A DNA stretch of 64,000 nucleotides from Promethearchaeota archaeon. Lineage in GTDB: Archaea; Asgardarchaeota; Lokiarchaeia; Sigyniarchaeales; SOKP01. This document shows, in pieces, positions 15,249 to 33,442 of this stretch. The DNA lies in the NCBI GenBank assembly GCA_016926735.1, contig JAFGOA010000187.1:22920-86919 (forward strand), read 5' to 3'. Made by a program: the position numbers and the translations under genes. Numbering within the stretch: the first letter of the stretch is position 1; each line of letters opens with the position of its first letter. The notes under the pieces are model-generated. The model saw only the letters and a program-made list of their open reading frames with translations, was not told the DNA's origin and made no database searches.

Positions 15249-15860
15249 TTATTGTGTTTTTCTTCCACAATATTGACAAAATTTTTGTTCAACAGGATAT
15301 AAATTGCCACAATTTGGACAATTATTTAAACTATTTTTTAAAATTTCTTTACTTAACATTTCAAAAGCATATTCTACATTTTCTCCGGTCTTAGCGGAAG
15401 TCCTAATTAATTCTCCTTGAAAATTAGCTTTCTTAAAGAATTCTTCACCCTCTTCTTTGCTTACTTCTCTTAAATCATCTAAATCATATTTTGTTTCTAT
15501 TATCAATTTGGTTTTTGGACTATTTGGAACAGAAGATATAATCTTTACCCATTCCTCCAAGTCTTCAAGTGAATCTTTATTTGTACAATCATATAACATC
15601 AATGCACCTGATGCTCCAGAGACATATGAAGGTAACAAAATTCTGAATTTTTTTTCACCGGCAAAATCCCATATATTTAATAAAATGTCGGTCTCCTCTG
15701 TAGATACTTTTTTAGTCTCAAAATCCACTCCTATGGTTGAAAGTAAATCTGCATGGAATTTGCCTGTTGCATAACGACGGATTAAACTTGTTTTTCCCGC
15801 ATCCTTAGCCCCTGCAACAACAACTTTGAATTTTAAAAGTCTTCTTGTATAATTTGACAT
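15249..15860 (-). CDS. Rab-like small GTPase with C-terminal zinc ribbon
   Basis: G1 GAKDAGKTS, STIGVDF, WDFAGE, TKYD, TSAK; C-terminal CPNC..CQYC. Confidence 0.92.
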   Translation of the reverse strand: MSNYTRRLLKFKVVVAGAKDAGKTSLIRRYATGKFHADLLSTIGVDFETKKVSTEETDILLNIWDFAGEKKFRILLPSYVSGASGALMLYDCTNKDSLEDLEEWVKIISSVPNSPKTKLIIETKYDLDDLREVSKEEGEEFFKKANFQGELIRTSAKTGENVEYAFEMLSKEILKNSLNNCPNCGNLYPVEQKFCQYCGRKTQ

Positions 15861-15999: not shown

Positions 16000-18357
16000 T
16001 TATTCATTATTGTATTTAAATCGACTTATTTTATAGATCTCTTGAGCCAATTTTTTCCCAATATTCTCAGTTTTCATAAGTTCGCCAATATCTGCATTGA
16101 AAATATTCTGTATTGTTCGTATTTCTTTTAATAGGCTTTTAGCTCTTAATATATTAATTCCCGGAATACTAGAAACAACATATTCTAATAAATAAGCCAT
16201 ATCAGATGGAGCTTTTTCAAATCTCAATTTGATATTACCTTTTGATGTTGATTGTTCTTTTTTTACCAAATGATATAAGAAAGTTGTAGTTTCATTGACA
16301 TCTTTGGTTTTATAAATTGTAACACCTATTTTAAGAATTATGGACGAAATTGCTCCAAATATTGCATTTTCATTTATTGTAGTGTTCTCTAAAGGATCTC
16401 CTTCTAAGACAAGAATTGCATTTTTGAAATTTTTTTTTAATTCAAAAAGCTCTTTAAATAATCTGCCATCTTTTATAGAATCCGTAAAGTCTTGAGCACT
16501 TTTTCTTTCTATTCCTGTATTTTCAGAAATAATATAATCTGCTATTTCAAGTTGTTCCAACTTTATATTTAAATTCATAAGAGATAGATTTCTAACAACC
16601 GGAGATGCTGTCTCTCTAGTATCACAAATAATTGTATACATTTCTTTATTTTCAGTATCTTCAGAAATAAATTCTGTCTTATTATGATTTATATTTCTGT
16701 TTTTAGGAATATTTTCTTTTTTTTTCTCTGATAAAAAACTCAAAAGGTCTTTTTGTTCCTTTTTCTGATTATTATTAATATCTAGTTCTTTGATTTTTTT
16801 TAAATTATTATACATGTTTCTCTCTTTTTTTTTTTCTGCCCAATAATATCCTTCATCTCGAGTATTTTTCCCCATTAAAATATAAACTTTTCCTTCTTTC
16901 TTCCTTCCTGTCCGTCCTCTTCTTTGTATTGAGCGAATAGCACTAGGAACAACGTCGTAAAAAATGACCAAATCACATTCAGCTATATCTAAACCCTCTT
17001 CAGCTACACTTGTTCCTATGAGCGTGTTGTAAAAACCGTCTTTAAAATCTTTTAAGATATTTATTTGTTGCTTTTGTGTTAATCCTTTATCAGTTCCTTT
17101 ATTTGCTTGACCAATAAATTTATGAACTTTAATTACAGGATCATTTTTAAAAATTTTAACAATGTTATTTACAGAATCTCTATAATGACAGAAAACTAAT
17201 ATTCGAGATTCTGGAATCTGTTTTATTTGTTTATGAATAAGGTCTTTTAGTTTATCAATTTTAGGGTGGACTAAACCTTCTGATTGAATTTTATTTGTTA
17301 AATTTATTGCATTTTGTATGCTTCTATCTAAGAATAATTCTTTGAGAGATTTATTAGCAGTATTTTTTTTCAACTTTTCATTATTTTTTCCAAAATAATC
17401 TTTTAAAGCATTTATTCCTTGAGTTTCCAATAATTCGATCATATGTGATAATCTTATAGCATTAGCCTGCAATTTTTTTGCTTTAAATAATTGAAATTTT
17501 TCTCCCTCATCATAAGTAGAATTAATTTGACGGCTAATTTGATTATTCAGATCCAATAAATCTTTACGAGTTATTTTATTTATATCCACGGAATTTATTA
17601 AATCAATATTTTTGAGGAATTTATATATAGATCTTAATTTATCAGTTAAAATCTTTAATATCTCCAAAAATTCTTCTGGAAGATCAACCTTAATCCACTC
17701 TTGTTCAATATTATGAATATATGGCTTAACATCCGCATCCTTTTCTGTTCGAATTTCAATATTTTCAATAAATAAGTTTTCTTTTATTTCATTAATTTTT
17801 TCCTCAGTTGTCCCTGGACTTGCTGTAATACCAAGGATCTGGGAATTTTTTGATATATCTATATATTTTTTTGCAATGAAGCAATAAGCATAATCTCCTA
17901 CTGCTCGATGGCATTCATCAAATATAATTAAAGAAACATCTTTCAGAGAGTAGTTATTCGAAATTATATCATTTTGGAGTACTTGCGGGGTCATAAAAGA
18001 TATTTTAATATCCTTCCAAATTTCTCTACGTTCTTCTGGAGAAATAGATCCTGTTATTGATTTTAAAGAATTTAAGTCAAGGGTAGTCAATTTCTGAAAT
18101 GATTCATAATGTTGATTTACAAGAGGTTTAGTAGGGGCGAGAAAAATAACTTTTGAATCCGGAAATTCTGCTAATCTATGAACTGCAAGCATAAGTGCTA
18201 TTATTGTTTTACCTAAACCTGTTGGAATTATAACTAAAGAGTTATGATTTAAGCAATTGATAAAAATGTTTTCTTGATATAATCTTCTTATAACAAGATC
18301 TTTTTGTATTAATGGATGTGAAACATATGGATATTTATTTAAAGTCATACTATTCAA
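16000..18357 (-). CDS. hef: Hef/FANCM-type helicase fused to ERCC4 nuclease
   Basis: PTGLGKT, DECH, TASPG and QRRGRTGR helicase motifs, followed by DTRE, ADY, ERKS..D nuclease motifs and HhH repeats. Confidence 0.95.
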   Translation of the reverse strand: MNSMTLNKYPYVSHPLIQKDLVIRRLYQENIFINCLNHNSLVIIPTGLGKTIIALMLAVHRLAEFPDSKVIFLAPTKPLVNQHYESFQKLTTLDLNSLKSITGSISPEERREIWKDIKISFMTPQVLQNDIISNNYSLKDVSLIIFDECHRAVGDYAYCFIAKKYIDISKNSQILGITASPGTTEEKINEIKENLFIENIEIRTEKDADVKPYIHNIEQEWIKVDLPEEFLEILKILTDKLRSIYKFLKNIDLINSVDINKITRKDLLDLNNQISRQINSTYDEGEKFQLFKAKKLQANAIRLSHMIELLETQGINALKDYFGKNNEKLKKNTANKSLKELFLDRSIQNAINLTNKIQSEGLVHPKIDKLKDLIHKQIKQIPESRILVFCHYRDSVNNIVKIFKNDPVIKVHKFIGQANKGTDKGLTQKQQINILKDFKDGFYNTLIGTSVAEEGLDIAECDLVIFYDVVPSAIRSIQRRGRTGRKKEGKVYILMGKNTRDEGYYWAEKKKERNMYNNLKKIKELDINNNQKKEQKDLLSFLSEKKKENIPKNRNINHNKTEFISEDTENKEMYTIICDTRETASPVVRNLSLMNLNIKLEQLEIADYIISENTGIERKSAQDFTDSIKDGRLFKELFELKKNFKNAILVLEGDPLENTTINENAIFGAISSIILKIGVTIYKTKDVNETTTFLYHLVKKEQSTSKGNIKLRFEKAPSDMAYLLEYVVSSIPGINILRAKSLLKEIRTIQNIFNADIGELMKTENIGKKLAQEIYKISRFKYNNE

Positions 18358-18563
18358 GATAAGAAATTATTATTAAATGGAATATAGTTATTATACAGGA
18401 TTAAAAACTATATAAAATATTAGAGTCCTATGGAACACTTAAATCAAATTAATATCTTTTTAATAAATTATTTTTATAATTTCAAAAAATATTATTTTTC
18501 TATCGAGGAAACCTTAAGGTAAAAGTTTATTTCAAATAGGCGATTCTAAATTAATAATATTAA

Positions 18564-18730
18564 GCGCGGATAGTTTAGCCCGGTTATAACGACTTATTAC
18601 TTTGGAGGACCATAGTAAAACGTTAAACGCTCACACCGTGTAAATAATTATTCTTTATTAATTATCACGACGGTCGAGGGTTCAACTTAGAAGTTCATCT
18701 CGAATTTCATTGGAAATCCCTCTCCGCGCA
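18564..18730 (+). tRNA. tRNA-Val(CAC) with three non-canonical BHB introns (18594-18626, 18643-18671, 18687-18716)
   Basis: Removing the three introns at BHB cut sites gives a 75-nt cloverleaf: acceptor GCGCGGA/TCCGCGC-A, anticodon stem ACACG/CGTGT with loop CT-CAC-AC, variable loop AGGTC, T arm GAGGG-TTCAACT-CCCTC; CCA not encoded. Confidence 0.93.
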
Positions 18731-18857
18731 TTATTTAATAACATATCAATCTAGAATGAACTTAACTTTAACTGATATATTCATTATTTTTAATAATAAA
18801 AATTAAATGAAATGTTATATTTCATAATATAACTACTCTTTCTAGGTATTATTAAAA

Positions 18858-19160
18858 GTGTCAAGTTTCTTAGAATCTCGAGAATTAAGAAAGAAATATA
18901 AAGAAGTAAGAGAATATGTAAAGATTGGTCCTATCTTCTTAACACGTTATGAAAAAGCCAGAATTGTTGGTGCAAGAGCACTTCAAATTAGTTTTGGTGC
19001 ACCAATTCTTGTTGAAAAACCAAATGATATGATTGATCCAATAAGAATCGCTCAATTAGAACTTAAGTCAGGAATTCTTCCTCTAACAATCAGAAGAGAA
19101 ATGCCAAGTGAAGAATTTCAAGATGTTCCAATTAATAAATTAATACTAAAAAAGGATTAA
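18858..19160 (+). CDS. rpoK: DNA-directed RNA polymerase subunit K (Rpo6)
   Basis: LTRYEKARIVGARALQI and PLTIRR motifs. Confidence 0.96.
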   Translation: MSSFLESRELRKKYKEVREYVKIGPIFLTRYEKARIVGARALQISFGAPILVEKPNDMIDPIRIAQLELKSGILPLTIRREMPSEEFQDVPINKLILKKD

Positions 19161-19338
19161 TTGGATTTTTTCCTTAATTTAATATTTTAATATATTCATC
19201 ATTAATTCTTATGAAATTCTCAATATTTTTTTATTTTAAAAATCACATGGAAATTTATGTAATTATCAGAACTTTAAAAAATTACAGAGACCAATAATAA
19301 AAATAAAGATATAAAATTACTTTGTTTCTCATATCTTT

Positions 19339-19770
19339 CTATTGAATTCTATATTTTCCTCTTTCAGTAAGATAATAAACCCTATTCTCACCAACAATCT
19401 CAGATGTAACATATCCTTTAGAGATTAAGGTTCCTAATATTTCTTCTAATTCTGCTTTTTTATATGGTTCATTTCCCATTGGAATTCTACTTTGGTTTGC
19501 GATAATTGCAATTCTATTTAGGAACATTCGTTTATTTTGTATTGATTCTATTATTGTCATTTCATCATTACTAAGTTTTTGAAAACTATCATGAGTAATA
19601 ATTTGATCTTTTAATGTTTTAGCTAAGTTTAGCGTTTCAGGGCTTGCTTCTTGTTTTTGAGTTTCAACATGAGTTAACTCAACCATATCTTTAGCTACTT
19701 TTTGTTCTTTCTTTTTAGCGGCTTCTTCAAAATGAGATAATAACTCATTCTTTTTTTCTTCATCATTCAT
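19339..19770 (-). CDS. Hypothetical protein with C-terminal winged helix
   Basis: L..KGYV......YYLTERG wHTH wing motif. Confidence 0.6.
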   Translation of the reverse strand: MNDEEKKNELLSHFEEAAKKKEQKVAKDMVELTHVETQKQEASPETLNLAKTLKDQIITHDSFQKLSNDEMTIIESIQNKRMFLNRIAIIANQSRIPMGNEPYKKAELEEILGTLISKGYVTSEIVGENRVYYLTERGKYRIQ

Positions 19771-19815
19771 AGTAATACAATAAACAAATTAATTATAAAA
19801 ATTTATTATTCAATA

Positions 19816-20388
19816 ATGAAAGAATATTTCAAATTGAGTAATGGAGAAGAAATTCTAATTAGACATGTCAAAAGAGCAGATATTAATGGAATTTGGAAAA
19901 ACTTTAATGAAGTAGTGAAAGAAGGTATATTTCTTCCTGTTCTTTTTACAATTGATTCTCAATTTGAAAAACAATCATGGTTTGACAATATTAAAAAATC
20001 AAATGAATTATGTATTGTGGCTGAAAACCTTAATTTACAACCCCCATCCAACAATATTATTGGACAATGTGAAATAACCAATATAGAATGGGATGCTGCA
20101 ATGCATGTTGGAAATCTAGGGATAATCGTAAATAAAAATTATAGAAATATGGGTATTGGAAAAAAATTAATCTTATCTGCAATTGAAGAATCTAAAAAAA
20201 TAAATAAAAAGAAACTAGTTTTAAGCTGTTTTTCAAATAATAGACGAGCTTTAAATTTATATGAAAATCTAGGATTTAAAAAAATTGGAATCAGAAGAAG
20301 ACAATTTTTAATTGATTCTACTTATTATGATGAATTACTTATGGAATTGTTTATTAATGAAGATTTTGATGATATAAAAAAACTATAA
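19816..20388 (+). CDS. GNAT family N-acetyltransferase
   Basis: YRNMGIGKKL and N.RA..LYE.LGF motifs. Confidence 0.9.
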   Translation: MKEYFKLSNGEEILIRHVKRADINGIWKNFNEVVKEGIFLPVLFTIDSQFEKQSWFDNIKKSNELCIVAENLNLQPPSNNIIGQCEITNIEWDAAMHVGNLGIIVNKNYRNMGIGKKLILSAIEESKKINKKKLVLSCFSNNRRALNLYENLGFKKIGIRRRQFLIDSTYYDELLMELFINEDFDDIKKL

Positions 20389-20795
20389 CCTCCTCTGTAA
20401 AAGCAAGTAAATCTGATACTATAGGGAACTACTAAAACTAAAGGTTGAAGCTTCTTAGGAATGTACAATCATCTCTACTATGGATTGGTCTGTATATTTT
20501 AAAAACCTATTCTATTGTGTTAGATATAATTCCTCATTCATAGAGGATTGATACGATAGGAAATCATATGTAATTTACATATGCTTTTCTATTGGAAAAT
20601 TATAATTTTCTTTCCAATTCTTCATTCGCTTAGCTAACGCAAAATTAAAAATAAGACAACATTTTTCAGAGAAAAACCATAGAAGATATTCTTATTCCTC
20701 TGATGAATATAATAGTCTTTTCGGGTTAGCAACATTATTATAAAAAGAATAGGAGAACCACTAAATACAGGAAGACTCCAAAGATTTACTATTAT
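20385..20795 (-). ncRNA. Candidate ~400-nt structured non-coding RNA (family unassigned)
   Basis: No ORF in the track; several hairpins and long-range pairings (20782-20790 with 20406-20414; 20766-20777 with 20388-20399; 20746-20753 with 20506-20513); G-U pairs favour the minus strand. Confidence 0.4.
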
Positions 20796-20804
20796 GAAAA
20801 GATA

Positions 20805-20854
20805 CACTCAAATCATTTCCTCTTGAAAAAGAGGTGTCTTCTTGAGTGATAAAA
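20805..20854 (-). repeat. 50-nt K-turn-like hairpin, copy A (just 3' of pan)
   Basis: 40/50 ungapped identity to 63903-63952(+); stem CACTCAA/TTGAGTG closing GAAGA...ATGA. Confidence 0.7.
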
Positions 20855-20873
20855 TAAAGGATAAAATTTTAGT

Positions 20874-21989
20874 TTAGGTGTAAATATAATCTTTTACACT
20901 ATGTTCTTTATCAATAATTTCCGCTAATGCATCATTAAAATCTTTTTGATCTATAAAAGATTTTAGTTGTCTTAATGCTTTTATACCTGCTTCAGTTACT
21001 AAAGCTTTAATATGAGCTCCACTAAATCCATCAGTTTTTTTTGCGATCTCTTCAAAGTTTACATTTTTTAAATTCATTTTTCTAGAGTGGATTTTTAAAA
21101 TCATTAATCTTGCTTCTTCATTTGGTAAATTGAATTTAATAATACGATCAAATCGACCAGGACGTAATATTGCAGGATCCAAAACATCTACTCGATTTGT
21201 AGCAGCTAGGAACATAATATTATCCGTATTCGCAAAACCATCTAACTCTGATAATAATTGCATAAAAGTTCTCTGTACTTCTCTATCTCCTTTATATACT
21301 TCACTTGTACGCTTAATAGCAATTGCATCTATCTCATCAATAAAAATAATTGCTGGAGTGTTTTCTTTTGCTAAACTAAATACTTCTCTTACCATACGAG
21401 AACCTTCTCCAATGAATTTTTGAACTAAATCTGAACCAACCAAATGAATAAACCTTGCTTTGGTTGAATTAGCAATAGCTTTTGCTAATAAGGTTTTTCC
21501 TGTCCCAGGAGGTCCTGATAACAAAGCTCCAGAGGGAGGATCGATACCAATTTGTTCAAATAATTCTGGATGTAATAATGGTAATTCTATAACTTCTCTT
21601 ATTGCTTGTATTTGCGCATCTAATCCTCCAATATCTTGAAATGTAGCATCTGGAATTTCTACTAACTCCATACCTGCTACATGACCTCTAATTTTCCTTG
21701 ATAATATCTCTAAAATTTGATAACTTTGTGGGTGAAGTGAAACTTGATCTCCTGCTTGAGGGTCAATTATTTCATTTGGAGGCAATATTATACGATTTCC
21801 AGGTGCATGAGATATGATGACTCTCTTGTCTTCTAGAACACGTTCAACAGAACCAATTATTAAAGGTCTTTTTTTTAAATTAGTTAGTAGATCTTTAAAA
21901 CTCGAAACTTGATTTTTTAACTGTTCATTCTCTTTTTCTAAATAACTAAGTCTTTTCTGATACTTCTTAATATCTATTTCTGTCATCAT
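20874..21989 (-). CDS. pan: Proteasome-activating nucleotidase (AAA+ ATPase)
   Basis: N-terminal coiled coil/OB, GPPGTGKT, IFIDEID, REVQRT, RPGRFDR; C-terminal HbYX-like IYT. Confidence 0.93.
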   Translation of the reverse strand: MMTEIDIKKYQKRLSYLEKENEQLKNQVSSFKDLLTNLKKRPLIIGSVERVLEDKRVIISHAPGNRIILPPNEIIDPQAGDQVSLHPQSYQILEILSRKIRGHVAGMELVEIPDATFQDIGGLDAQIQAIREVIELPLLHPELFEQIGIDPPSGALLSGPPGTGKTLLAKAIANSTKARFIHLVGSDLVQKFIGEGSRMVREVFSLAKENTPAIIFIDEIDAIAIKRTSEVYKGDREVQRTFMQLLSELDGFANTDNIMFLAATNRVDVLDPAILRPGRFDRIIKFNLPNEEARLMILKIHSRKMNLKNVNFEEIAKKTDGFSGAHIKALVTEAGIKALRQLKSFIDQKDFNDALAEIIDKEHSVKDYIYT

Positions 21990-22409
21990 TTACAATATAT
22001 ATAAATTAAAAGTCCCAAAAATAATTATTTATTTTATTTCTATTTTTATTTACAATAATTATAATTAATTTTGTAATTATTCGGTTAAATTTTCCAAAAT
22101 AGAAATAAATCTTTAGACATAATGAATTTAAGGTATTTATGGGAATTTGCTAATAGATAATTCTTAAATATCTTAAAATGATTATTTTATCTCATGTATT
22201 TATAAAGGTTTAAGTTTTGTATTAAAAAAATTTATAAAGATCAAATATTATTATACATTTAATTTTAATTTATAACGATTTCAAAAATGAGTTATAAAGA
22301 TAAAAATATATAAATGATATAAACTATATTATAAGGAGTAATACCAATTATTCCTAATTAAAACATAAATTAAATTAAAAAAAATCTTAAAAAACAAGGC
22401 TGAAAAAAA

Positions 22410-23555
22410 ATGGCAGAAGAAGAAAGTTTTTTAAACGCAAAGGCCTTAGTTGTTGATAATGGTACTGGTATTTCTAAGAATGGATTTGCAGGTGAAGATC
22501 AACCTAGATCTGTATTTCCTACTCTAATTGGGTATCCTAAATATGAATCCATCATGACTGATGTTGAACACTATACCCGTGAGTATTATATTGGGGAAGA
22601 GGCTATGCAACTAAAAGGTGTTCTTAAATTAATGTTCCCAGTCGAACATGGTATTATTGAGGATTGGACCGCTATGGAAAAGATATGGCATTATACATTC
22701 TATACAGATCTAAGAATTGATCCTTCCGAACATCCTGTACTCTTAACTGAAGCACCATTAAATCCAAGACCAAATAGAGAGAAAATGGCAGAAATAATGT
22801 TTGAAACATTTAACACTCCTGCTCTCTATGTAGCAATGCAAGCTGTATTATCTTTGTATGCTTCTGGTCGTACAACTGGGTGTGTTATTGATATTGGTGA
22901 TGGTGTATCACACGTTGTCCCTATATTTGAAGGATTTGCTTTAAGTCATGCAATTCAAAGAATAGATTTAGCTGGAAGAGATATTACAACCTATCTACAA
23001 AGATTACTTAGACAAAAAGGGTATTCTTTTACGACATCCGCAGAAAAGGAAATTGTACGCGATATTAAAGAGAAATTATGTTATGTAGCTATTGATCCTG
23101 AGAAAGAAATGATGCTTTCCAAGAAAGTTGCAGGAATGGAAAAGAGCTATATGTTACCTGATGGGGAAACGATTAATGTTGGTGTTGAACGATTCTTAGC
23201 ACCAGAATGCTTCTTTAATCCATCTGTTATTGGAAAAGAATTAGAGCCTTTGGATGATGTAATTGTAAATGCTATATCCGAATGTGATGTTGATCTTAGA
23301 CGTGATTTATACAGCAACATAGTCTTATCTGGTGGATCTACAATGTTCCCAGGTATAAAAGAACGATTAACTAAAGAAATTAAAGAGCAAATTCCTGAAT
23401 CAGTCGATGTTAAAATCATTGCTCCACCAGAAAGAATGTATTCTGTCTGGATTGGTGGATCAATTCTAAGTTCTCTTAAAACATTCCATAGAATGTGGGT
23501 AACTAGGCGCGAATATAAAGAGATGGGGCCTCAAGTAATTCATAGATGCTTCTAA
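22410..23555 (+). CDS. Lokiactin (eukaryote-like actin)
   Basis: [54 protein letters not shown] and SVWIGGSIL motifs; C-terminal HRCF. Confidence 0.98.
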
Positions 23556-23610
23556 TTTCGCTTTAAGCGAAAAATTAAAATTTTTGAATTTTTTTATTTT
23601 CTCTTTTTTT
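23556..23610 (+). terminator. Hairpin plus T-tracts after lokiactin stop
   Basis: TTTCGCT-TTA-AGCGAAA immediately after TAA, followed by oligo-T runs; the next gene is convergent. Confidence 0.5.
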
Positions 23611-23702
23611 TATTATTTTTAAAAATTTGTAATATTTTTTACGATTATCAGATAAATTCTTGATATATCTATTAATTTCAAGAAATTTTGATTATTTATG
23701 AA

Positions 23703-24233
23703 TTAGTCCAATTCTAATGTATGTTCTTGAATTAATATTTTTATAACATTATTAAATATTTCTTCAATATTGTCTCCAGTCAAAGAGGATATTTCATAAA
23801 ATCCATTCAGATTATAGGATTCTTGAATATCATTTCCCCTGTTGGAAGGAACTTCTCTATATTTCTCAAGATCCTTTTTTGTGCCAATTAATAGAATAGG
23901 TATATTATTTGTGTTCTCTTTTACAATATTGATCCATATAGGAAGATGATCATAAGAGTTATTATTTTTAATATCATATAGTATAAGTGCAACATCTGCT
24001 CCTGTACAATATTTTGGAAGAATTGATCTAAAACGCTCTTCCCCTCCAAAATCCCAAATTTGGAATTTAAATAATTTATCACCGTATTCTATAAATTTTG
24101 AAAATATATCTATACCTATCGTCTGTTTTAGATTATCTCTAAATAACCCAGTAACATAACGATATGTTAAAGTAGTTTTTCCTACTCCCTTATCTCCTAA
24201 AATTATTAATTTAAAAACAAACTCTTGATTCAT
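23703..24233 (-). CDS. Rab-like small GTPase
   Basis: GDKGVGKTT, QTIGIDI, WDFGGEERF, GTKKD and EISS motifs. Confidence 0.92.
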   Translation of the reverse strand: MNQEFVFKLIILGDKGVGKTTLTYRYVTGLFRDNLKQTIGIDIFSKFIEYGDKLFKFQIWDFGGEERFRSILPKYCTGADVALILYDIKNNNSYDHLPIWINIVKENTNNIPILLIGTKKDLEKYREVPSNRGNDIQESYNLNGFYEISSLTGDNIEEIFNNVIKILIQEHTLELD

Positions 24234-24648
24234 TTTTTTTTTTTAATTTTTAATCTCTAATATCATATATTTTTTATGTATTAGTATTTAATATTTACGT
24301 CTATTTAAATTATAAAAATTATATATTGTAAATATATCACGTATATATTATACCGCAAAATTAATGTTAAGATAACTATAAATTTAACCTATCAACCAGT
24401 TTTATCATCCTATTCAATATATAGAAATTATTTTGTCGAAACCATATGGAGATGATTATTTTAGATTTTATCTTCTGAAAGAGTACTTTTTAGGTCTATT
24501 GAATAAAGATTTTTTTAAATACTCCCTTTCAATTAACCTATCTACATCATATTATATTAAATTACAAATTATAAAAGAAAATAAAAAAATTTTTTTGTTA
24601 TTTGAATTTAGAAATATCAACAATAAAAATATTATCAGATGATTTAAT

Positions 24649-26589
24649 TTGCCTACTATGGATAGACGATTCATTGATGAGGAAGGTAAAGTATTAATGT
24701 TAGGAAATGAAGCAATTATAAGGGGATGTTTAGAAGTAGGTGTAAGCTTTGTTTCCCAATATCCTGGAACACCAACAAGTGATATAGGTGAGACCTTTCA
24801 GAAATTACTGAGAGAACAACCGGAATTACAAAATTATTTAGTACATCATTGGGGTATCAATGAAGCTGTAGCCTCCTCTGAATGTGCGGGAGCCGCCTGG
24901 ACAGGTTGTAAATCATTAAATCCAATGAAACATGTAGGATTAAATGTTGCAAGTGATCCTTTAAGTGTTATTGCTCTTAATGGACCCAACCCTGGGGCAA
25001 TGGTAATATTAGTTGGTTCTGATCCTGGGAGTTTGGGATCTCATCAAGAACAAAATGAACGATTTTATACTTGGATGTTTCATTTTCCTTGCTTTGAGCC
25101 TCATACACCTCAAGATTGTAAAGATTATATCAAACTAGCTTTCAAATTATCTGAACAATATGATACTGTTTTTGAAATAAGAACTTCAACAAGAAGTGCC
25201 CACTCTAGAGGTTTTGTTAATTTAGAGCCTATAATAAAAGGAAAGAAAAAAGGAGAATTTATAAGAAATATTCCAAAATATAATTCTCTCCCTCCTCATG
25301 CAATTAATAATCACATAAGACTTTACGAAAGAATTGAAAAGCTAAGAGAAATTATACCAAAATTAGGAGTAAATAAAGTAATAGAAGGAAATAATAAAAT
25401 AGGGATTATAACTAGTGGAATGCCTTATGGATATACTTTGGAAGCATTAGATCAATTAGGATTAAATGATGTACCTATATTAAAATTAGGACTAATCTAT
25501 CCATTAAATTATAATGAAATTTCAGATTTTCTTAAAGATTTAGATAAAGTTATAATAATAGAAGAATTAGAACCCTTTTTAGAAGTAAAAATATCAGAAA
25601 TTGCACATAAAAAGGCAATTAATGTTGAAATAATCGGTGAAAAATATTTTCCTAAATCAAATGAATTTTCTACGGGATTAGTTGCATCATGTTTAGCAAA
25701 AATATTTAAAAAAGAACCAAGTAATCAAATGATAAAAGCTATTGATTATTTTAATTCATATAAAAACATAATTCCAAGTAGGTTTCCCTCTTTTTGTGCT
25801 GGATGTCCAGAAAGAGCAACGCTCTATACAATTCTTAAAGCAACTAATCAGTTAGAAAATACAGTAGTATGTGGTGATATTGGATGTTTTGTAATGAGTT
25901 TTTTTCCTCCTCAACAATGCAGTGATTTAGTAATTTGTATGTCAGGTGGACTAAGTGCGGCAATCGGTATGTCTACAAAAACAGATCAAAAAGTTATTGC
26001 CTATATGGGAGACTCAACTTTTTTACACACTGGAATGAGTCCATTAGCTGAAGCGGCAAGTTATGATTCAAATATACTATTATTTATCTTTGAAAATAGT
26101 TGGACAGCTATGACTGGCCATCAACCAGTACTAGGATTGATTGAAAAAAGAATATCTATTGAAAAAATCTGTAAAGCAATTGGAGTACAATGGCTCAGAG
26201 TTGAAGATTCTTATAACCCAAAAAAATTAATCTCAAGTATAGAGAAAGCATTTGAGACTAAGGGGCTTAAAGTAATTATAGTAAAAAGAGAATGTGCTCT
26301 ACAGGCTCATAGATGGAGAATGAAACAAAGAAGAGAATTAAATAATCAAGGCAAAAGAACACAAGAGGTTATGTATCATATTACGGGGTGTCAGATGTGT
26401 TATGAATGCGCTCGTATATTGAGTTGTCCTGCAATAAGAAAAATTGAAAAAGATGGATATGAAACCATGCAAATTGACGATGATAGATGTGTAAAATGTG
26501 GTGTCTGTTATGAAGTTTGTCCTAATGGAGCCATTCATAAATCTATTATTAATGCTTTAGATGAAGAAGTTCCCTTTCGAGAACTCTGA
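24649..26589 (+). CDS. iorA: Indolepyruvate:ferredoxin oxidoreductase alpha subunit
   Basis: GNEAI.RG, YPGTP, MKHVGLNVASD, CAGCP, GDIGC, GDSTF.H, TAMTG.Q; C-terminal ferredoxin. Confidence 0.95.
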   Translation: MPTMDRRFIDEEGKVLMLGNEAIIRGCLEVGVSFVSQYPGTPTSDIGETFQKLLREQPELQNYLVHHWGINEAVASSECAGAAWTGCKSLNPMKHVGLNVASDPLSVIALNGPNPGAMVILVGSDPGSLGSHQEQNERFYTWMFHFPCFEPHTPQDCKDYIKLAFKLSEQYDTVFEIRTSTRSAHSRGFVNLEPIIKGKKKGEFIRNIPKYNSLPPHAINNHIRLYERIEKLREIIPKLGVNKVIEGNNKIGIITSGMPYGYTLEALDQLGLNDVPILKLGLIYPLNYNEISDFLKDLDKVIIIEELEPFLEVKISEIAHKKAINVEIIGEKYFPKSNEFSTGLVASCLAKIFKKEPSNQMIKAIDYFNSYKNIIPSRFPSFCAGCPERATLYTILKATNQLENTVVCGDIGCFVMSFFPPQQCSDLVICMSGGLSAAIGMSTKTDQKVIAYMGDSTFLHTGMSPLAEAASYDSNILLFIFENSWTAMTGHQPVLGLIEKRISIEKICKAIGVQWLRVEDSYNPKKLISSIEKAFETKGLKVIIVKRECALQAHRWRMKQRRELNNQGKRTQEVMYHITGCQMCYECARILSCPAIRKIEKDGYETMQIDDDRCVKCGVCYEVCPNGAIHKSIINALDEEVPFREL

Positions 26590-26778
26590 ATTCATTTTAG
26601 AGGTAATATTATTTTTAATATCTATTTCATTTTTTGATAAGAACTACAAGTCTAAAATATTATTTGATATAATAAATCAATGATTTCTAAATATCTAAAA
26701 TTTGAAATCAAATATCCTAAAATTTTTATGAAATATCATATATAATTAATTTAAAAATTGATTAATTAGGATGTAATA

Positions 26779-27693
26779 ATGGATATACCGAATAAAAAAC
26801 CTTCAAAAAAAATATGCTATTTCCTTGATACTGATGAAACTGCTTCTCCTTTTGACATCAATATGGCTTATGATGCGGGATTTGATGTGGTTGTCCCGTT
26901 TAATAATATGACAGCCGATAAAGTCCCAAGACTGATACAAGACGCTATTTTTTCCAGAAAACCAAATGCTTCTACTGCCTTTTTTATTGGGGGAGAGGAT
27001 ACAAAAGAAGCAGATAAAATTGTTAATAAAGTCTTGGAATCATTTGTTCCTCCTTTTGAATGCCCTGTGATTGTTGATCCACGAGGATCACATACTACTG
27101 CTTCAGCAATAATTGCTAAAATTATAAAGATAGCTAAAGAACACGGAATTGAAAATTTATCTGGGAAAAAAATGGTAATTTTAGGAGCAACTGGTCCAGT
27201 AGGAAAGATTGGAGCTCTTCTTTCGGCTAATCTTAATTGCAATACAGTCATTACCTCTAGAAGAGAACAATATATAATGACATTAGCGAAAGAACTTAAT
27301 GAGAACACAAATAATGGTGCGTCTGAAATAATTGGAGCTGTTGGAGCTACAGATGATGATAAATATAATGTTTTAAAAGATGCAGATTTAATTTGCTCAG
27401 TTGCGAAAGCTGGTATTGAAATGATCTCAAAAGAACTACTAGAAAAATTACCTCCTAAAAAAATAGTCGTAGATATTAATTTAGTCCCTCCCTATGGTAT
27501 CTATGGTCTAAAACCTAATTATGATAATGAGGAACTAATATCAGGAATTTTTGGGATAGGTGCTCTAGCAATTGGGAATCTCAAATCTAAAATTGAAAAG
27601 GCTATGTTAATAGAAGCATCTAATACAACAGGGAGAAAAATATTTGATTATAAAAATGCATTTAATTCAGCTAAATTGTTACTTAATATTTGA
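26779..27693 (+). CDS. NAD(P)-dependent methylene-H4MPT/H4F dehydrogenase (MtdA/B/C family), copy 1
   Basis: SPFD.NMAYDAG, QDAIFSR, DP.GS.TTA.A, GATGPVG, D.NLVPP.G and GALAIG.LK motifs. Confidence 0.88.
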   Translation: MDIPNKKPSKKICYFLDTDETASPFDINMAYDAGFDVVVPFNNMTADKVPRLIQDAIFSRKPNASTAFFIGGEDTKEADKIVNKVLESFVPPFECPVIVDPRGSHTTASAIIAKIIKIAKEHGIENLSGKKMVILGATGPVGKIGALLSANLNCNTVITSRREQYIMTLAKELNENTNNGASEIIGAVGATDDDKYNVLKDADLICSVAKAGIEMISKELLEKLPPKKIVVDINLVPPYGIYGLKPNYDNEELISGIFGIGALAIGNLKSKIEKAMLIEASNTTGRKIFDYKNAFNSAKLLLNI

Positions 27694-28081
27694 TTAATTT
27701 CATTTTCTTATATATTTCTTTGCCAGCAATTTTTACTTTGTTGTCTATATATTACTTTTAAGATTAGTTTTTCCGTATGGTATTAAATTTAGATACTTCT
27801 GTTTTAGGTGGAGATAATTTTTTTAATTGGTGTTTATTTTATAGAATATTTACTTTTTTAAAAAGTATATATTATATTTCATAATCACTAAGAATTGTTA
27901 CATTATACAAATATAATGCTAGATTTTAATATTAATAAGATTGATTTCCAAATAGTATAAGACTAAAAGAGAATATTAGATGATCTATTATGATCAAAAG
28001 ATTAATATACCCAAACATTATATTATAACTTGTGATAGTTACTTTTTTCTTTTTTTTCTCAAAATGAGGTAGATCATTAGG

Positions 28082-29032
28082 ATGGAACTATTAAAATTAA
28101 AATCAAATGAAAAGACTATTAATATGATTAAAAAAGATAAAACAGCTAATATATGCTATTTTTTTGATACTGATGAATATGCTTCTCCTTTTGATATCAA
28201 TATGGCTTATGATTCAGGTTATGATATTGTCATTCCTTTCAATCATATGAGTAGTAAAAAAGTTCCTAAGCTGGTTCAAGATGCTATTTTTTCCAGACGG
28301 AAATATAATTCTTCAATTTTCTTTATCGGGGGAAGTGATACGCAGGAAGCAGATTTAATCGCTAAAAATATTTTTAATTCTCTGGTACCACCATTTGAAT
28401 ATCCTATTGTCTTAGATCCCCGAGGATCTCATTCTACAGCCTCGGCCATAGCTGCTAAAACTCTTAGTATTTTAGGAAATATTAATAACAAAAAGATTGT
28501 AATTTTAGGAACGGGTCCAGTTGCTAGAATGGCTGCTTTATTAGGTGCTAAACTTAATGCTAAAATTAATATCGTGGAAACATGGAATAAAGTGGATTTA
28601 AAACAATTTAATGAAATTATAAAAAATCTAAAAAAGGAGTGTAAACAAGAAGAGAATAACCGAATTAATGGAAATTGTGCTTTTTCTGAAGAAGATCGTT
28701 TGGTAATAATAAAAGATGCAGATATTATTTGGTCACTGGCGGCACCTGGAATACAGATCCTTTCAGAGGAAATTATGAGTAATTTAAACAACAGTCAATT
28801 AGTAATTGATGCAAATTTAGTACCTCCCTATGGAATTTATGGATTAAAACCTAAAGATGATAATAAAGAAATATATCCTGGAATTTTTGGAGTTGGAGCA
28901 TTAGTAATTGGAAAATTAAAATATAAGATTGAGTCTTTGATATTAAAAAAAGCAATGAATTCTGCAACAAAAACACTTTATGATTATAATTATGGATTTG
29001 AAATAGCATTGAAATTATTAAATTTAAATTAA
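28082..29032 (+). CDS. Mtd-family methylene-H4MPT/H4F dehydrogenase, copy 2
   Basis: Same motifs as copy 1; GTGPVA. Confidence 0.85.
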   Translation: MELLKLKSNEKTINMIKKDKTANICYFFDTDEYASPFDINMAYDSGYDIVIPFNHMSSKKVPKLVQDAIFSRRKYNSSIFFIGGSDTQEADLIAKNIFNSLVPPFEYPIVLDPRGSHSTASAIAAKTLSILGNINNKKIVILGTGPVARMAALLGAKLNAKINIVETWNKVDLKQFNEIIKNLKKECKQEENNRINGNCAFSEEDRLVIIKDADIIWSLAAPGIQILSEEIMSNLNNSQLVIDANLVPPYGIYGLKPKDDNKEIYPGIFGVGALVIGKLKYKIESLILKKAMNSATKTLYDYNYGFEIALKLLNLN

Positions 29033-29322
29033 TTTTTTTTTAACCTTTTTAGTATATTATTTTTTATTATCTAATTATATACAAATAATTGTATAATAAT
29101 CAAAAATGAATTTTGAAATTAACAAATTATTACCTATTATAAATATATCCATGTTTGTTTATCAGCTTGATATGATTGATAATAATAATAAAAAGCACAT
29201 ATCAGATCATAAAATATATGATAATGATCAAAACATTTATATATTAAAATCATTTCTACATCTTTTGGGGAATATATTTTAAAGAATTTAGCCTGTATTT
29301 TAAAAAGAGGTGAGCTTATAAA

Positions 29323-30276
29323 ATGGAATTATTGGAAATAAAACCTGATAAAAGATTAATTAAAGTTATAGAAAAAGAAAAACAAACTGATATTATATGC
29401 TATTTTTTTGATACAGATGAATATGCCTCTCCATTTGACATAAATATGGCTTATGATGCTGGAATAGATAATGTTTTACCTTATAGTAATGTGAAAGCTA
29501 ATTATGTTCCAAAATTAATAAATCAACTTATTTTTTCTAGAAAAATATGTTCTAGAACAATCTTTTTTGTTGGAGGAAGCAAAACAAATGAAGCTGATTT
29601 GATTGCTAAAAATATTTATCATTCATTAGTAGCTCCTTTCAATTTTCCTATCATAATTGATCCTAGAGGGTCTCATACAACTGCCTCAGCGATTATAGCA
29701 ACAATGATTAAAGCTATAAAAAATTTAAAGAATAAAAATATTGTAATATTAGGAACCGGTCCTACAGCAAGAATATTAGCAATATTAGCAGCCAGATTAA
29801 AAGCAAAAATAGTTATGTTCGAAACATTGAAAAACGTTAATCAAAATTATATAAACGATCTCAATTTTGAATTAAGTGAAAAATTAGCTCAAGATTTTAA
29901 AAATCTAACTATTTATTGCAATTCTAACGATATTATTGACCGATTTGACCTAATCAAAAATGCAGATATAATTTGTTCTCTTGTGGCACCTGGAGTAGAG
30001 ATTTTACCTGTTCATATAATTAAAAAATTAAAGAGCCCAAAATTAATTATTGATGGAAATATGGTACCTCCTTATGGTGTGTGGGGATTAAATCCAAATG
30101 ATAATAATAAAGAAATTTATCCAGGGATTTTTGGTATTGGCGCATTAATCATAGGTAATTTAAAGTATAAAATAGAATCTCTTATTTTGAAAGAAGCCAT
30201 GAAATCTAGTATAAAAAGAATTTTTAATTATAATTACGCATTTAATATCGCTTTAAAATTACTTAATTTAAAATAA
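29323..30276 (+). CDS. Mtd-family methylene-H4MPT/H4F dehydrogenase, copy 3
   Basis: Same motifs; QDAIFSR changed to NQLIFSR, GTGPTA. Confidence 0.82.
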   Translation: MELLEIKPDKRLIKVIEKEKQTDIICYFFDTDEYASPFDINMAYDAGIDNVLPYSNVKANYVPKLINQLIFSRKICSRTIFFVGGSKTNEADLIAKNIYHSLVAPFNFPIIIDPRGSHTTASAIIATMIKAIKNLKNKNIVILGTGPTARILAILAARLKAKIVMFETLKNVNQNYINDLNFELSEKLAQDFKNLTIYCNSNDIIDRFDLIKNADIICSLVAPGVEILPVHIIKKLKSPKLIIDGNMVPPYGVWGLNPNDNNKEIYPGIFGIGALIIGNLKYKIESLILKEAMKSSIKRIFNYNYAFNIALKLLNLK

Positions 30277-30393
30277 TTTTTTTTTCTTTTTTTTTTTTAA
30301 ATAATTATCAATAATAATTATTATTAGTAGGAACAATAGTTATTTTCATCTGAAATAAATTATTCTTCTTTTTCTGTAAAAAAAAATAAAATA

Positions 30394-31182
30394 TTATATA
30401 AATAATTTTATAATTAAAAAGATTCCAATTCCTATACCATAAATAGGAATAACATATTTCCAGAATTTATTTGGTATAACTCTTACAAGATATGGAGATA
30501 TTAAGGCAGCAAAAAACCCTCCTGTGAAAAGTGAAGGTAAAAGAATGAGATCAACAATTATTCCAAAATTTTGAATCAAATAGAAACAAAAAATACCAAC
30601 TATTGAAACAATACTTTCTGAAAAAGAAACAATAGCTGTAGCGCTTTTTTCATAAATACCTGAATGAATTTGTCCTAATGTAATTATTGGACCATAACCT
30701 CCTCCTCCAATTCCTTTATTAAAACCTGCTATTGCTGAAAAACCGATTAATAATTTACGATTTAATTTATTTTGTTGATCTTTTTTAATTATTAATTTTA
30801 GAATTGCAACTCCTCCCATAATAACTACTAAAATAGCTACATATGCTTTAATAAAAATGGTTGGCAAATGAAATGCAAGATATGTAATTATAATTGAAGC
30901 AAATATTGCAATACATCCACAAAATGCAAAAATTAATCCGAATTTTGTAGCCTCATTTAATGGTTTGAATGAATAACGAACATTTCCTAATTCATGATCA
31001 AAAAATGTATCAATTATTCCTGTTATTGTTTCAGAAATAAGTATTGTTGGTACTACTTGAAGAGGAGAAAATCCATATAATAACAATAATGGGGATAATG
31101 CAGTTCCAAAACCCATACCTGCCATTGAGTCCATAGATTCAAAAATAAAAGCTAAAATTATAATATCCCAAAATAAATCCAT
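30394..31182 (-). CDS. TauE/SafE (TSUP) family membrane transporter
   Basis: D...GMGFGT..SP.L and GIGGGGYGP repeats; multi-TM. Confidence 0.85.
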   Translation of the reverse strand: MDLFWDIIILAFIFESMDSMAGMGFGTALSPLLLLYGFSPLQVVPTILISETITGIIDTFFDHELGNVRYSFKPLNEATKFGLIFAFCGCIAIFASIIITYLAFHLPTIFIKAYVAILVVIMGGVAILKLIIKKDQQNKLNRKLLIGFSAIAGFNKGIGGGGYGPIITLGQIHSGIYEKSATAIVSFSESIVSIVGIFCFYLIQNFGIIVDLILLPSLFTGGFFAALISPYLVRVIPNKFWKYVIPIYGIGIGIFLIIKLFI

Positions 31183-31195
31183 TCTTATATTACCT

Positions 31196-31336
31196 CTAAA
31201 TGGTAAAATGAAATATAAGCATTATTAGAATATAGAATAAAATAGCAAAAAGAATTTTCTTAATCGTATTTCTTTCTAATTTCATTCTTTCTCTAATATG
31301 GCGTTCATCCAATCTTTTAGCTTCTGATCCAATCAT
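31196..31336 (-). CDS. Small single-TM protein (46 aa), not in the ORF track
   Basis: MIGSEAKRLDERHIRERMKLERNTIKKILFAILFYILIMLIFHFTI*; its TAG overlaps the GAGGT SD of the TauE gene. Confidence 0.55.
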   Translation of the reverse strand: MIGSEAKRLDERHIRERMKLERNTIKKILFAILFYILIMLIFHFTI

Positions 31337-31439
31337 AACTTTAAATATTTTATTAATTAGTAATCTAAATTTAATTTGAAAATTATTATTTTAGATATAG
31401 TATTTAGGAGATTATCACTATTTAAGGTTTTTTACTTAA

Positions 31440-31459
31440 TTGATCATCGAGATGATCAA
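31440..31459. promoter_or_regulatory. 20-bp palindrome, candidate transcription-factor operator
   Basis: TTGATCATC-GA-GATGATCAA, between the divergent TauE unit and iorB. Confidence 0.4.
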
Positions 31460-31774
31460 AACCAATAAATTTAAATATAATTCCATTGAAATAAAGAAAA
31501 ATTACATAATTTTTACAGATTAAAAAAAATTAAAATTTGAATTGATTTTAAACATATTTATTTGTATTTTCTTTAACTTGCTTGGAACTTTTATTTCATA
31601 ATTCTAAATCTTTTTAGATTAATTTTGTATAAACAAAAATAATGATATTAAAATATCCATTTCTTTCTTTTAGGGGGACAAAAAATAGAAGAATTTTTAT
31701 ATTTAAAATGATAAAATCTTTAATCATTTCTAAATTTTTTAATATAATCAAAGTATTTGTTGATATATTCAAAG

Positions 31775-32479
31775 ATGAGCTTTAAAGAAACTGATATTAT
31801 TAATATTGTTGTAGCAGGAACTGCCGGACAGGGAGTTATTTCAGTTAAACGATTAATTGAATTTGCAGCTCAAAAAGCAGGCGCAGAGCGAATTCTTGGA
31901 AGTGAAATCTTTATTTAGTTAGAATAAAGACATTTAATGCATGGACTCGCTCAGAGAGAAGGTGCTATAACAAGTCATACACGATATCAAAAGAAATTGT
32001 TCAATAATCCTCGTAAAGATTTGCAATCTTCATTAATCTGCTATGGAGATGCGGATATTTATATTTGTCTCGAACCAGTTGAAGCTTTGAGAAGAGGTAT
32101 TTTTGCTTCGGAAAAGACAACTTTTGTAATAAATTCAAGAACAATTCCTGGTGTAATGATAACTGCTGGTCTGGAAAAATACCCATCATTAGATAAAATT
32201 AAAGAAACTTTGATAGGTAATGCTAAAGATGTTTATTTTATAAATGCTACTGAAATATCTTTAGAATATTTCAAACAAAATCAGCAAGTAAATATAATAA
32301 TGTTAGGTTTTGCTATATCAACTAATAAATTACCTTTTATCGAAATAGATCATTATGAAGATGTAATTAAAGAATGGCTAAAAGATCCTGAAATAAATAT
32401 TAAAGCATTGCATTTAGGTATCGAAAAAGGTAAAGAAATAATCGAAAAAATGAATTTAAATCCAGACAAGATAGAATAA
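31775..32479 (+). CDS. iorB: Indolepyruvate:ferredoxin oxidoreductase beta subunit, split by a 30-nt intron (exons 31775-31906 and 31937-32479; 224 aa)
   Basis: Exon 1 MSFKETDIINIVVAGTAGQGVI...ILGSE; exon 2 MHGLAQREGAITSH...LEPVEALR...N..MLG; the joined GSEMHGLAQREG is the IorB motif. Confidence 0.9.
31907..31936 (+). other. Bulge-helix-bulge mRNA intron in iorB
   Basis: AGTG-[AA^A]-TCTTTATT-loop-AATAAAGA-CATT-[TA^A]; contains in-frame TAG and TAA. Confidence 0.85.
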
Positions 32480-32521
32480 ATGATTGATAAAGAGAATGTC
32501 TAATAAAATTTAAAAAAATAA

Positions 32522-33442
32522 TTAGCTTATAGACACTATAATTGTTCCAATAATTATTATAATAATTCCTAGTATTTGATACTTATTCAGATTTTCTTTT
32601 AGGATAATAATCCCTAAAATAACAGTAATTAAAGGATTTATGGCAGTAATTGGGCTTGCTCGAGAGATACCAATCAGACGAATTGCTTCAAAATAAGCAA
32701 CGCTTCCTATACCCCAAGCCATTATTCCTGCATATACTAAGAATATGAAATTTCGTTTTGAAATTGATTTTCTTTCTCTCTTTATTTTATTATTATTAGT
32801 ATTTCCAATTGAAAATATCAACCATACTATTGTTGTGAATATAGTAGATACAAAAAATCTAAAAGCTGTTACTGAATATGTGTTAATATTAGGAAATTCA
32901 AAAACGAAATTTAACATAACCAAGGATATTGACCATGATAAAGCACCCAAAATAGCTAATAATATACTTGTATAATATAATTTAGTATTAATCTCTTCTT
33001 TACTATCATTATATCCATTTTTCTGGGATACAAATCCTACTCCAATAACCGTTGTAATAGTTCCTATAATAGTCAAAATAGATATGTTCTCAATATCACC
33101 TATAATTAATATAGTTGCTATAAAGATTGGTGTAATTGAAGACGCAACTTGAACAATTGATGCTTTTCCCATTTTGAGTGCTTTAAAATAAAGAATTTCA
33201 CCCAAAGAGTTTAATAGACCTCCAATTATTAAAAGAAAAGATATATTCATTTGAAATAAAGATCTAAAAGAATATATTAGACCAGAAGCTAATATAAATA
33301 TGAGAAGAAAACAAACAGCTGAAAACCCACGAATAATTACTGAGACCAATGGAGATTGTTCTTTTAAAACTACTTTAACAACAATAACTGTTGATCCCCA
33401 GCAGAATGCTGCCAATATTGATAGTATTATTCCTAAGAACAA
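32522..33442 (-). CDS. EamA/DMT family transporter
   Basis: Two EamA repeats (A..WG, YF.AL, P....L....L.E); ~10 TM. Confidence 0.9.
   Translation of the reverse strand: MFLGIILSILAAFCWGSTVIVVKVVLKEQSPLVSVIIRGFSAVCFLLIFILASGLIYSFRSLFQMNISFLLIIGGLLNSLGEILYFKALKMGKASIVQVASSITPIFIATILIIGDIENISILTIIGTITTVIGVGFVSQKNGYNDSKEEINTKLYYTSILLAILGALSWSISLVMLNFVFEFPNINTYSVTAFRFFVSTIFTTIVWLIFSIGNTNNNKIKRERKSISKRNFIFLVYAGIMAWGIGSVAYFEAIRLIGISRASPITAINPLITVILGIIILKENLNKYQILGIIIIIIGTIIVSIS

Follow-up and report, generated by a model that had tools for sequence, protein, structure and literature searches.

The tRNA-Val(CAC) locus and its host

The DNA analyzed here, referred to as the window, is a stretch of 64,000 nucleotides from contig JAFGOA010000187.1 of a metagenome-assembled genome (MAG), GCA_016926735.1. 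A tRNA-Val(CAC) gene interrupted by three short intervening sequences lies in it between a divergently oriented upstream gene, which we take from its sequence motifs to encode a Hef/FANCM-like helicase-nuclease, and an RNA polymerase subunit gene that starts 128 nt 3' of the tRNA and is presumably rpo6/rpoK, an assignment made by eye from its sequence (Table 1). The MAG (3.88 Mb in 238 contigs, 26% G+C, 99.3% complete, 4.8% contamination) belongs to a Lokiarchaeia-type (Promethearchaeia) Asgard archaeon, outside the Thermoproteales, and the nearest relatives of its rpo6-like gene are found mainly in records titled Promethearchaeota or Promethearchaeia. An actin homolog and two small GTPases in the window are typical Asgard eukaryotic-signature genes. 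Elsewhere in the window stand three adjacent paralogous genes (304-317 aa) with a common SPFDINMAYD motif, which is presumably that of methylene-tetrahydromethanopterin/folate dehydrogenases (MtdA/B).

Upstream of the tRNA, a purine-rich BRE-like stretch followed by a TATA-like box of the TTTA type, some 38 nt from the 5' end, may serve as its promoter. Among the upstream regions of 57 orthologs, the TTTA(A/T)T motif recurs at that offset, with the strict pattern at -38 in 17 of them. A sigma-70 promoter scan, whose model is not applicable to archaea, returned matches at chance level only.

Table 1. Features of the tRNA-Val(CAC) gene, its surroundings in the window, and interrupted tRNA genes on other contigs (C numbers) of the same assembly
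Feature	Position	Strand	Remarks
Whole tRNA-Val(CAC) gene	18564-18730	+	four collinear exons, one 167-nt locus
Exon 1	18564-18593	+	tRNA positions 1-28, including 17a and 20a
H1 exon strand AACG	18588-18591	+	in exon 1
Intron 1, 33 nt	18594-18626	+	site 28/29; relaxed HBh' motif, internal hairpin
CGTT pairing with H1	18621-18624	+	in intron 1
Exon 2	18627-18642	+	positions 29-44; anticodon CAC 18632-18634
H2 exon strand CGTG	18637-18640	+	in exon 2
Intron 2, 29 nt	18643-18671	+	site 44/45; hBHBh' motif
CACG pairing with H2	18666-18669	+	in intron 2
Exon 3	18672-18686	+	positions 45-59; H3 exon strand TTCA 18681-18684
Intron 3, 30 nt	18687-18716	+	site 59/60; T stem is the outer helix
TGGA pairing with H3	18711-18714	+	in intron 3
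Exon 4	18717-18730	+	positions 60-73, discriminator A
Putative archaeal promoter	18519-18533	+	BRE-like stretch, TATA-like box
Presumed Hef/FANCM-like gene	16000-18357	-	ORF; divergent, upstream of the tRNA
Presumed rpo6/rpoK-like gene	18858-19160	+	ORF; synteny anchor for ortholog collection
Actin homolog	22410-23555		
Small GTPases	15249-15860; 23703-24233		
Three adjacent paralogous genes	26779-30276		SPFDINMAYD motif
iorB-like gene	31775-32479	+	
Insert in iorB-like gene	31907-31936		30 nt, contains a stop
tRNA-Arg(GCG)	C153:44277-44440	+	census; three introns; 58/59-family member
tRNA-Phe(GAA)	C192:30660-30826	+	census; three introns
tRNA-Ile with UAU anticodon	C7:2752-2932	-	census; three introns
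tRNA-Asn(GUU)	C116, about 3925-4125	-	most likely four introns; missed by ARAGORN
tRNA-Lys(CUU)	C8:2830-2933		58/59-family member
tRNA-Arg(CCU)	C227:832-936		58/59-family member

Architecture and detection of the gene

The initial annotation, made from the letters of the window, had described exons of 30, 16, 15 and 14 nt and introns of 33, 29 and 30 nt at sites 28/29, 44/45 and 59/60; all of these values hold, as do its coordinates for the gene and its three helices (AACG/CGTT, CGTG/CACG and TTCA/TGGA) flanked by 3-nt bulges. Each central helix has all four pairs, one of them a G-U in TTCA/TGGA, and at every intron the cut falls after the second base of the 3-nt bulges. The introns, with a G+C content of 17-30%, differ in what surrounds this core. 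Intron 2 alone possesses both outer helices, of 2 bp on the exon side and 7 bp on the intron side. Intron 1 has no exon-side helix, and its hairpin follows a start of one pair and one mismatch, whereas intron 3 has a 5-bp exon-side helix, the T stem, and a 2x2 internal loop before its hairpin. The motifs of introns 1 and 3, two of the three, are thus relaxed rather than full hBHBh'.

The predicted spliced product is 75 nt long and is called tRNA-Val(cac) by ARAGORN, with stems of 7/3/5/5, so that the clean cloverleaf claimed for it stands, with one U13-U22 mismatch in the D stem. CCA is not encoded at the 3' end of the gene, and a T-rich stretch comes next. An alternative site of 58/59 for intron 3, by which A59 would be retained as it is in intron-free orthologs, was discarded, since the central helix does not hold at that place; a separate 58/59 intron does exist in tRNA-Val(CAC) of other lineages. 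A split or permuted tRNA is ruled out by the collinearity of the four exons within one locus. Group I or II self-splicing introns were likewise rejected, given intron lengths of 29-33 nt against a ribozyme core of more than about 200 nt, and an Rfam search of the window returned no match, including no self-splicing intron.

The expectation that standard scanners would miss this gene was borne out for the two that were run: in its unspliced form it was detected neither by ARAGORN, in the window or genome-wide with introns allowed, nor by Rfam. It was recovered by an intron-aware search that combined a generic tRNA profile, in which introns could be skipped freely, with a bonus for a 4-bp helix, used no length prior, and covered all 3.88 Mb without being given the locus; exactly the same three junctions were obtained under two parameter sets. 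No second copy of tRNA-Val(CAC) was found in the assembly, as the initial annotation had proposed to check, and genes for tRNA-Val(GAC) and tRNA-Val(UAC), the latter on contigs C90 and C157, lie elsewhere in it.

Intron turnover among orthologs

Using synteny with rpo6, 66 other tRNA-Val(CAC) loci were collected. Six of these are intron-free, 32 have one intron, 14 have two and 14 have three, at sites 28/29, 36/37, 44/45, 58/59, 59/60 and, once, 20b/21. Three-intron genes occur in three combinations: 28/29+44/45+58/59 (10 orthologs), 28/29+36/37+58/59 (2 orthologs) and, in the congeners of this genus, 28/29+44/45+59/60. Intron 28/29 occurs alone in 17 orthologs and intron 44/45 alone in 4. Lengths are tightly distributed, with 28-34 nt for 36 distinct orthologous introns at 28/29, 29-32 nt for 27 at 44/45, and exactly 30 nt for 19 of 21 at 58/59 and 7 of 8 at 59/60. 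Aligned without gaps, two intron-free orthologs (L010 and L013) agree with the spliced product at 69 of 75 bases, and the junctions are thereby fixed without recourse to the motif. Orthologs that carry only some of the introns have these exons as well.

Exon sequences vary at just three positions across the four species of the genus, exon 1 being identical in all four, whereas the intron cores diverge; distinct orthologous cores are about 50-60% identical. The central helix is nevertheless retained in distinct orthologous introns, with means of 3.9, 3.4 and 3.9 of 4 pairs at the three sites against about 1.1-1.7 for interior 4-mer controls, a figure that is partly circular in that the aligner rewards this helix. 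Intron hairpins have median z-scores of -2.4 to -2.6 over the three sites. In a covariation analysis confined to helices 4-8 (4-5 in intron 2, 6-8 in intron 3), compensatory changes among the congeners were observed in the hairpins of introns 2 and 3, and one-sided changes in the central helix H3 (together helices 5, 7 and 8).

Turnover is indicated by the well-supported sister pairs L041/L076 and L071/L081, whose members differ in intron content; the marker tree (rpo6, about 300 nt) is poorly resolved at depth and cannot separate gain from loss. Two side observations concern the ortholog set. Loci L011, L019, L049-L052, L066, L076, L090 and L093-L097 carry an anticodon-loop intron whose BHB register is 36/37 rather than the canonical 37/38, often shorter at 18-22 nt. 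In addition, L086 and several JBHL-prefixed loci come from records titled as a bacterium or as members of different Asgard classes; these records are probably mislabeled, as their rpo6 and tRNA sequences group with Promethearchaeia.

Introns in other tRNA genes and probable copying between isotypes

Introns are present in most tRNA genes of the host. An automated census, whose counts are approximate and which includes boundary miscalls such as initiator Met as Ser, Trp and class II Leu, identified three further three-intron genes (Table 1). The tRNA-Asn(GUU) gene most likely has four introns of about 24-26, 30, 30 and 30 nt, one of them in the T stem and two with ambiguous exact boundaries. 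Of 45 called intervening sequences, again an approximate number, 18 are exactly 30 nt long and 30 fall within 28-33 nt.

Several other tRNA-like loci were also observed. Two leucine genes, Leu(GAG) (C69) and Leu(UAA) (C188), appear to be multiply interrupted. Another Glu(CUC)-like gene besides the first lies at C79:790-942 (plus strand), on a contig of 4.8 kb, with 16 nt inserted in its variable region and 62 nt in its T loop; these might be nested introns. Arrays of 21 and 5 divergent tRNA genes with hardly any introns (C157:7086-13605 and C42:7266-7742) duplicate host isotypes on contigs of host-like G+C and could be part of a virus or another mobile element; one of their genes (Phe) carries a 28-nt intron at 32/33. 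Several tandem tRNA-like units with odd anticodons lie at C62:185-696.

Comparison of the introns themselves suggests movement between tRNA genes. Compared with the Phe 59/60 intron of this genome, intron 3 is 67% identical overall and 74% identical in its core, against 17-43% between its core and most other 30-nt introns there; the Tyr 59/60 intron is also 65% alike. Similarly, several Phe 59/60 introns from other genera share 65-83% identity with the Val 59/60 introns of the genus, and just 17-52% with Val 59/60 introns from different lineages. The simplest and probable origin of intron 3 is a copy from tRNA-Phe through an almost identical T arm, a donor assignment that rests on similarity, the marker tree of about 300 nt being too weak to place it; A+T-rich hairpins can also converge, and convergence may account for the likeness. 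A second example is the sequence family formed at 58/59 by introns from Lys(CUU), Arg(CCU) and Arg(GCG), which are 73-87% identical and suggest copying between isotypes. Genome-wide, 1 of 703 intron pairs is at least 80% identical (the Lys/Arg 58/59 pair, 87%), compared with 0 in shuffles. An intron transposition family of the Thermoproteales type would show at least this 80% identity between isotypes within a genome, a level that the Val/Phe 59/60 pair does not reach.

Splicing machinery and proposed maturation

Two EndA paralogs are encoded in the genome, on contigs C33 and C100. The C33 protein matches 3p1z_B (E=7e-36) as well as 3ajv_B, in an alignment that covers the lysine-bearing N-terminal loop as well as the Tyr/His/Lys catalytic region, while the C100 paralog is without the catalytic-type motif and looks like a structural subunit. 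The pair is predicted to assemble into an EndA of the broad-specificity type, (alpha-beta)2 with the L1/CSL loop. With this loop, which Asgard archaea possess, the enzyme can cleave relaxed motifs (PMC5829648), and the relaxed motifs of introns 1 and 3 fit such a two-subunit enzyme. An archease gene is present. Although rtcB was not found in this assembly, it occurs in all three congeners and in 34 of 36 family genomes, and the flanks of the congener genes map here to contig ends (the end of C232, at 6045, and the start of C105), so its absence likely reflects an assembly gap; a different ligase pathway was rejected on these grounds.

Taken with the conservation described above, this enzyme content makes it very probable that the locus is a functional tRNA-Val(CAC) gene with three protein-spliced introns of the BHB class. 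The gene would be transcribed as a precursor of about 170 nt, in which the last six bases of each exon would pair with the last six of the following intron to form a 4-bp helix with two 3-nt bulges, each motif being held by an intron hairpin, a tRNA stem or both. After cleavage, RtcB with archease would rejoin the exons, the genes for these enzymes being present or placed, and addition of CCA would yield a 78-nt tRNA reading GUG; the chemistry of exon joining and CCA addition is established. Of the active, position-tolerant splicing system proposed by the initial annotation, position tolerance is matched by an enzyme of the broad-specificity type, and activity is deduced from conservation and enzymes. 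Three metatranscriptome assemblies from the same study, compared with positions 18400-32600, left both the tRNA and iorB uncovered and are uninformative either way.

In ViennaRNA folding, which is crude for tRNA and misfolds the mature D arm too, the full BHB forms of the three introns are 2.0-3.6 kcal/mol less favorable than the ensemble, and none is the minimum-energy fold. The motifs can coexist, with additive costs (3.6+3.3+2.0 = 8.9 kcal/mol), and they share no bases, so no fixed splicing order is required. An order imposed by competing strands, with the introns possibly acting as a maturation checkpoint, would draw on the competition of CACG in intron 2 with an anticodon-stem strand and of CGTT in intron 1 with the D stem; the cost of the anticodon stem is 7.6 kcal/mol when introns 1 and 2 are both present and 3.2 when only intron 2 is, near the 2.7 of H2. 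Such an order is nonetheless unlikely, as the motif costs stay constant across eight splicing intermediates and orthologs carry 28/29 alone, 44/45 alone or both, which means that neither intron needs the other. An obligatory order is thus unsupported by folding costs or ortholog combinations; a kinetic preference may exist.

The introns are most likely tolerated passengers, recently gained and lost. [quoted passage not shown] This explanation appears improbable here, however, considering that six orthologs are intron-free, that close relatives differ, and that an Asgard census reported no mobile-element enrichment near gains (bioRxiv 10.64898/2026.10.13.758758). A relic whose inserts stay unspliced, with GUG read by tRNA-Val(UAC) through wobble, might be entertained since GUG makes up a small share of Val codons (2,888 of about 37,200) and Val(UAC) genes exist in the assembly; it is very hard to reconcile with nearly invariant exons beside diverging intron cores, with central helices and hairpins kept through compensatory changes, and with retention of the gene at 66 related loci with 0-3 introns. 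An assembly artifact or a chance arrangement of G+C-rich patches, conceivable for a contaminated 238-contig MAG, is already refuted by the same four-exon layout in three independently assembled congeners and by exons matching intron-free orthologs.

An intron-like insert in iorB

The insert in the iorB-like gene shares the geometry of the tRNA introns, with a length of 30 nt and a central helix of 4/4 pairs (AGTG/CATT), and without it a single open frame runs through ILGSE-MHGLAQR up to the stop. The initial annotation took the tRNA as support for an intron at this place. A lineage that needs position-tolerant BHB splicing makes this reading plausible, and to that extent the claim holds, but splicing of the mRNA is not thereby shown. 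The cbf5 pre-mRNA intron of Crenarchaeota is removed by the BHB/EndA mechanism, which would be that of the iorB insert; cbf5 is an mRNA case, in contrast to the tRNA gene described here.

Relation to known systems and significance

By its sequence features, the tRNA-Val(CAC) gene belongs to the already described archaeal class of multi-intron BHB tRNAs, its splicing in vivo being deduced. The rarity that the initial annotation attributed to triple-intron tRNAs is overstated: the 14 such genes among 66 orthologs, together with the other three-intron genes and the probable four-intron gene of this genome, make a three-intron tRNA ordinary for this lineage. In three complete Asgard genomes, 92-95% of tRNA genes have introns and more than half carry several (PMC11291895), with at least three introns in 10 of 43 tRNAs of Atabeyarchaeia-2 and 12 of 38 of Freyarchaeia (PMC11291895 Supp. 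Data 4). A recent preprint reported 2.2 introns per gene in its focal Asgard families, 30% missed by tRNAscan-SE, and repeated intron gains with no general route of arrival found; Lokiarchaeia is unnamed in its main text (bioRxiv 10.64898/2026.10.13.758758).

The present genome resembles Atabeyarchaeia and Freyarchaeia/Jordarchaeia in being Asgard and having several short non-canonical BHB introns per gene (Valentin-Alvarado et al. 2024, PMC11291895; Goswami et al. 2026, bioRxiv 10.64898/2026.10.13.758758), in having genes missed by standard annotation, in repeated gains and in a two-paralog EndA. In those groups the number reaches 3-4 introns per gene in PMC11291895 Supp. Data 4 and up to five in the preprint. 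The differences lie in the host class, here Promethearchaeia/Lokiarchaeia; in intron length, with a peak at 30 nt against medians of 22-23; and in the visibility of cross-isotype families, against 1.5% of focal introns in families of at least 80% identity (bioRxiv 10.64898/2026.10.13.758758). The last contrast is modest, just one pair here exceeding 80%.

Similar introns in different tRNA isotypes, reportedly described by Fujishima in 2010 for Thermoproteales, are common to that group and this genome. [quoted passage not shown] The triple-intron example, reportedly described by Sugahara in 2007 and 2008, is tRNA-Pro(UGG) of Pyrobaculum islandicum, with introns at 25/26, 37/38 and 56/57, and site 59/60 is also listed as an intron position (PMC4090602, PMC4033280). 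In contrast to these, the present gene comes from a different phylum and a 26% G+C genome, and all three of its introns are non-canonical.

These findings extend heavy tRNA interruption to a Lokiarchaeia family outside the focus of the two Asgard papers and show that tRNA counts based on ARAGORN or Rfam are wrong for these genomes. The gene also serves as a positive control for a lineage whose splicing has to accept relaxed BHB motifs at any position, and it raises the prior for inserts of about 30 nt in protein genes of the lineage, without proof. Moreover, the ortholog series is a ready data set on intron gain, comprising 67 loci with 0-3 introns of tight lengths at six sites and including one likely Phe-to-Val copy. 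The parts most worth following are the 30-nt length peak and the copying across isotypes. Tentatively, and with the balance somewhat against it, the three introns might be part of a Promethearchaeia population of mini-introns, nearly constant in length at about 30 nt, that is still spreading, copied between tRNA genes at homologous sites (Phe to Val at 59/60, Lys/Arg at 58/59) and landing in mRNAs such as iorB. If this were true, their fixed length would reflect a mechanism of insertion or circularization, and the arrival of BHB introns, a question left open by the 2026 Asgard census, would best be solved in this family.
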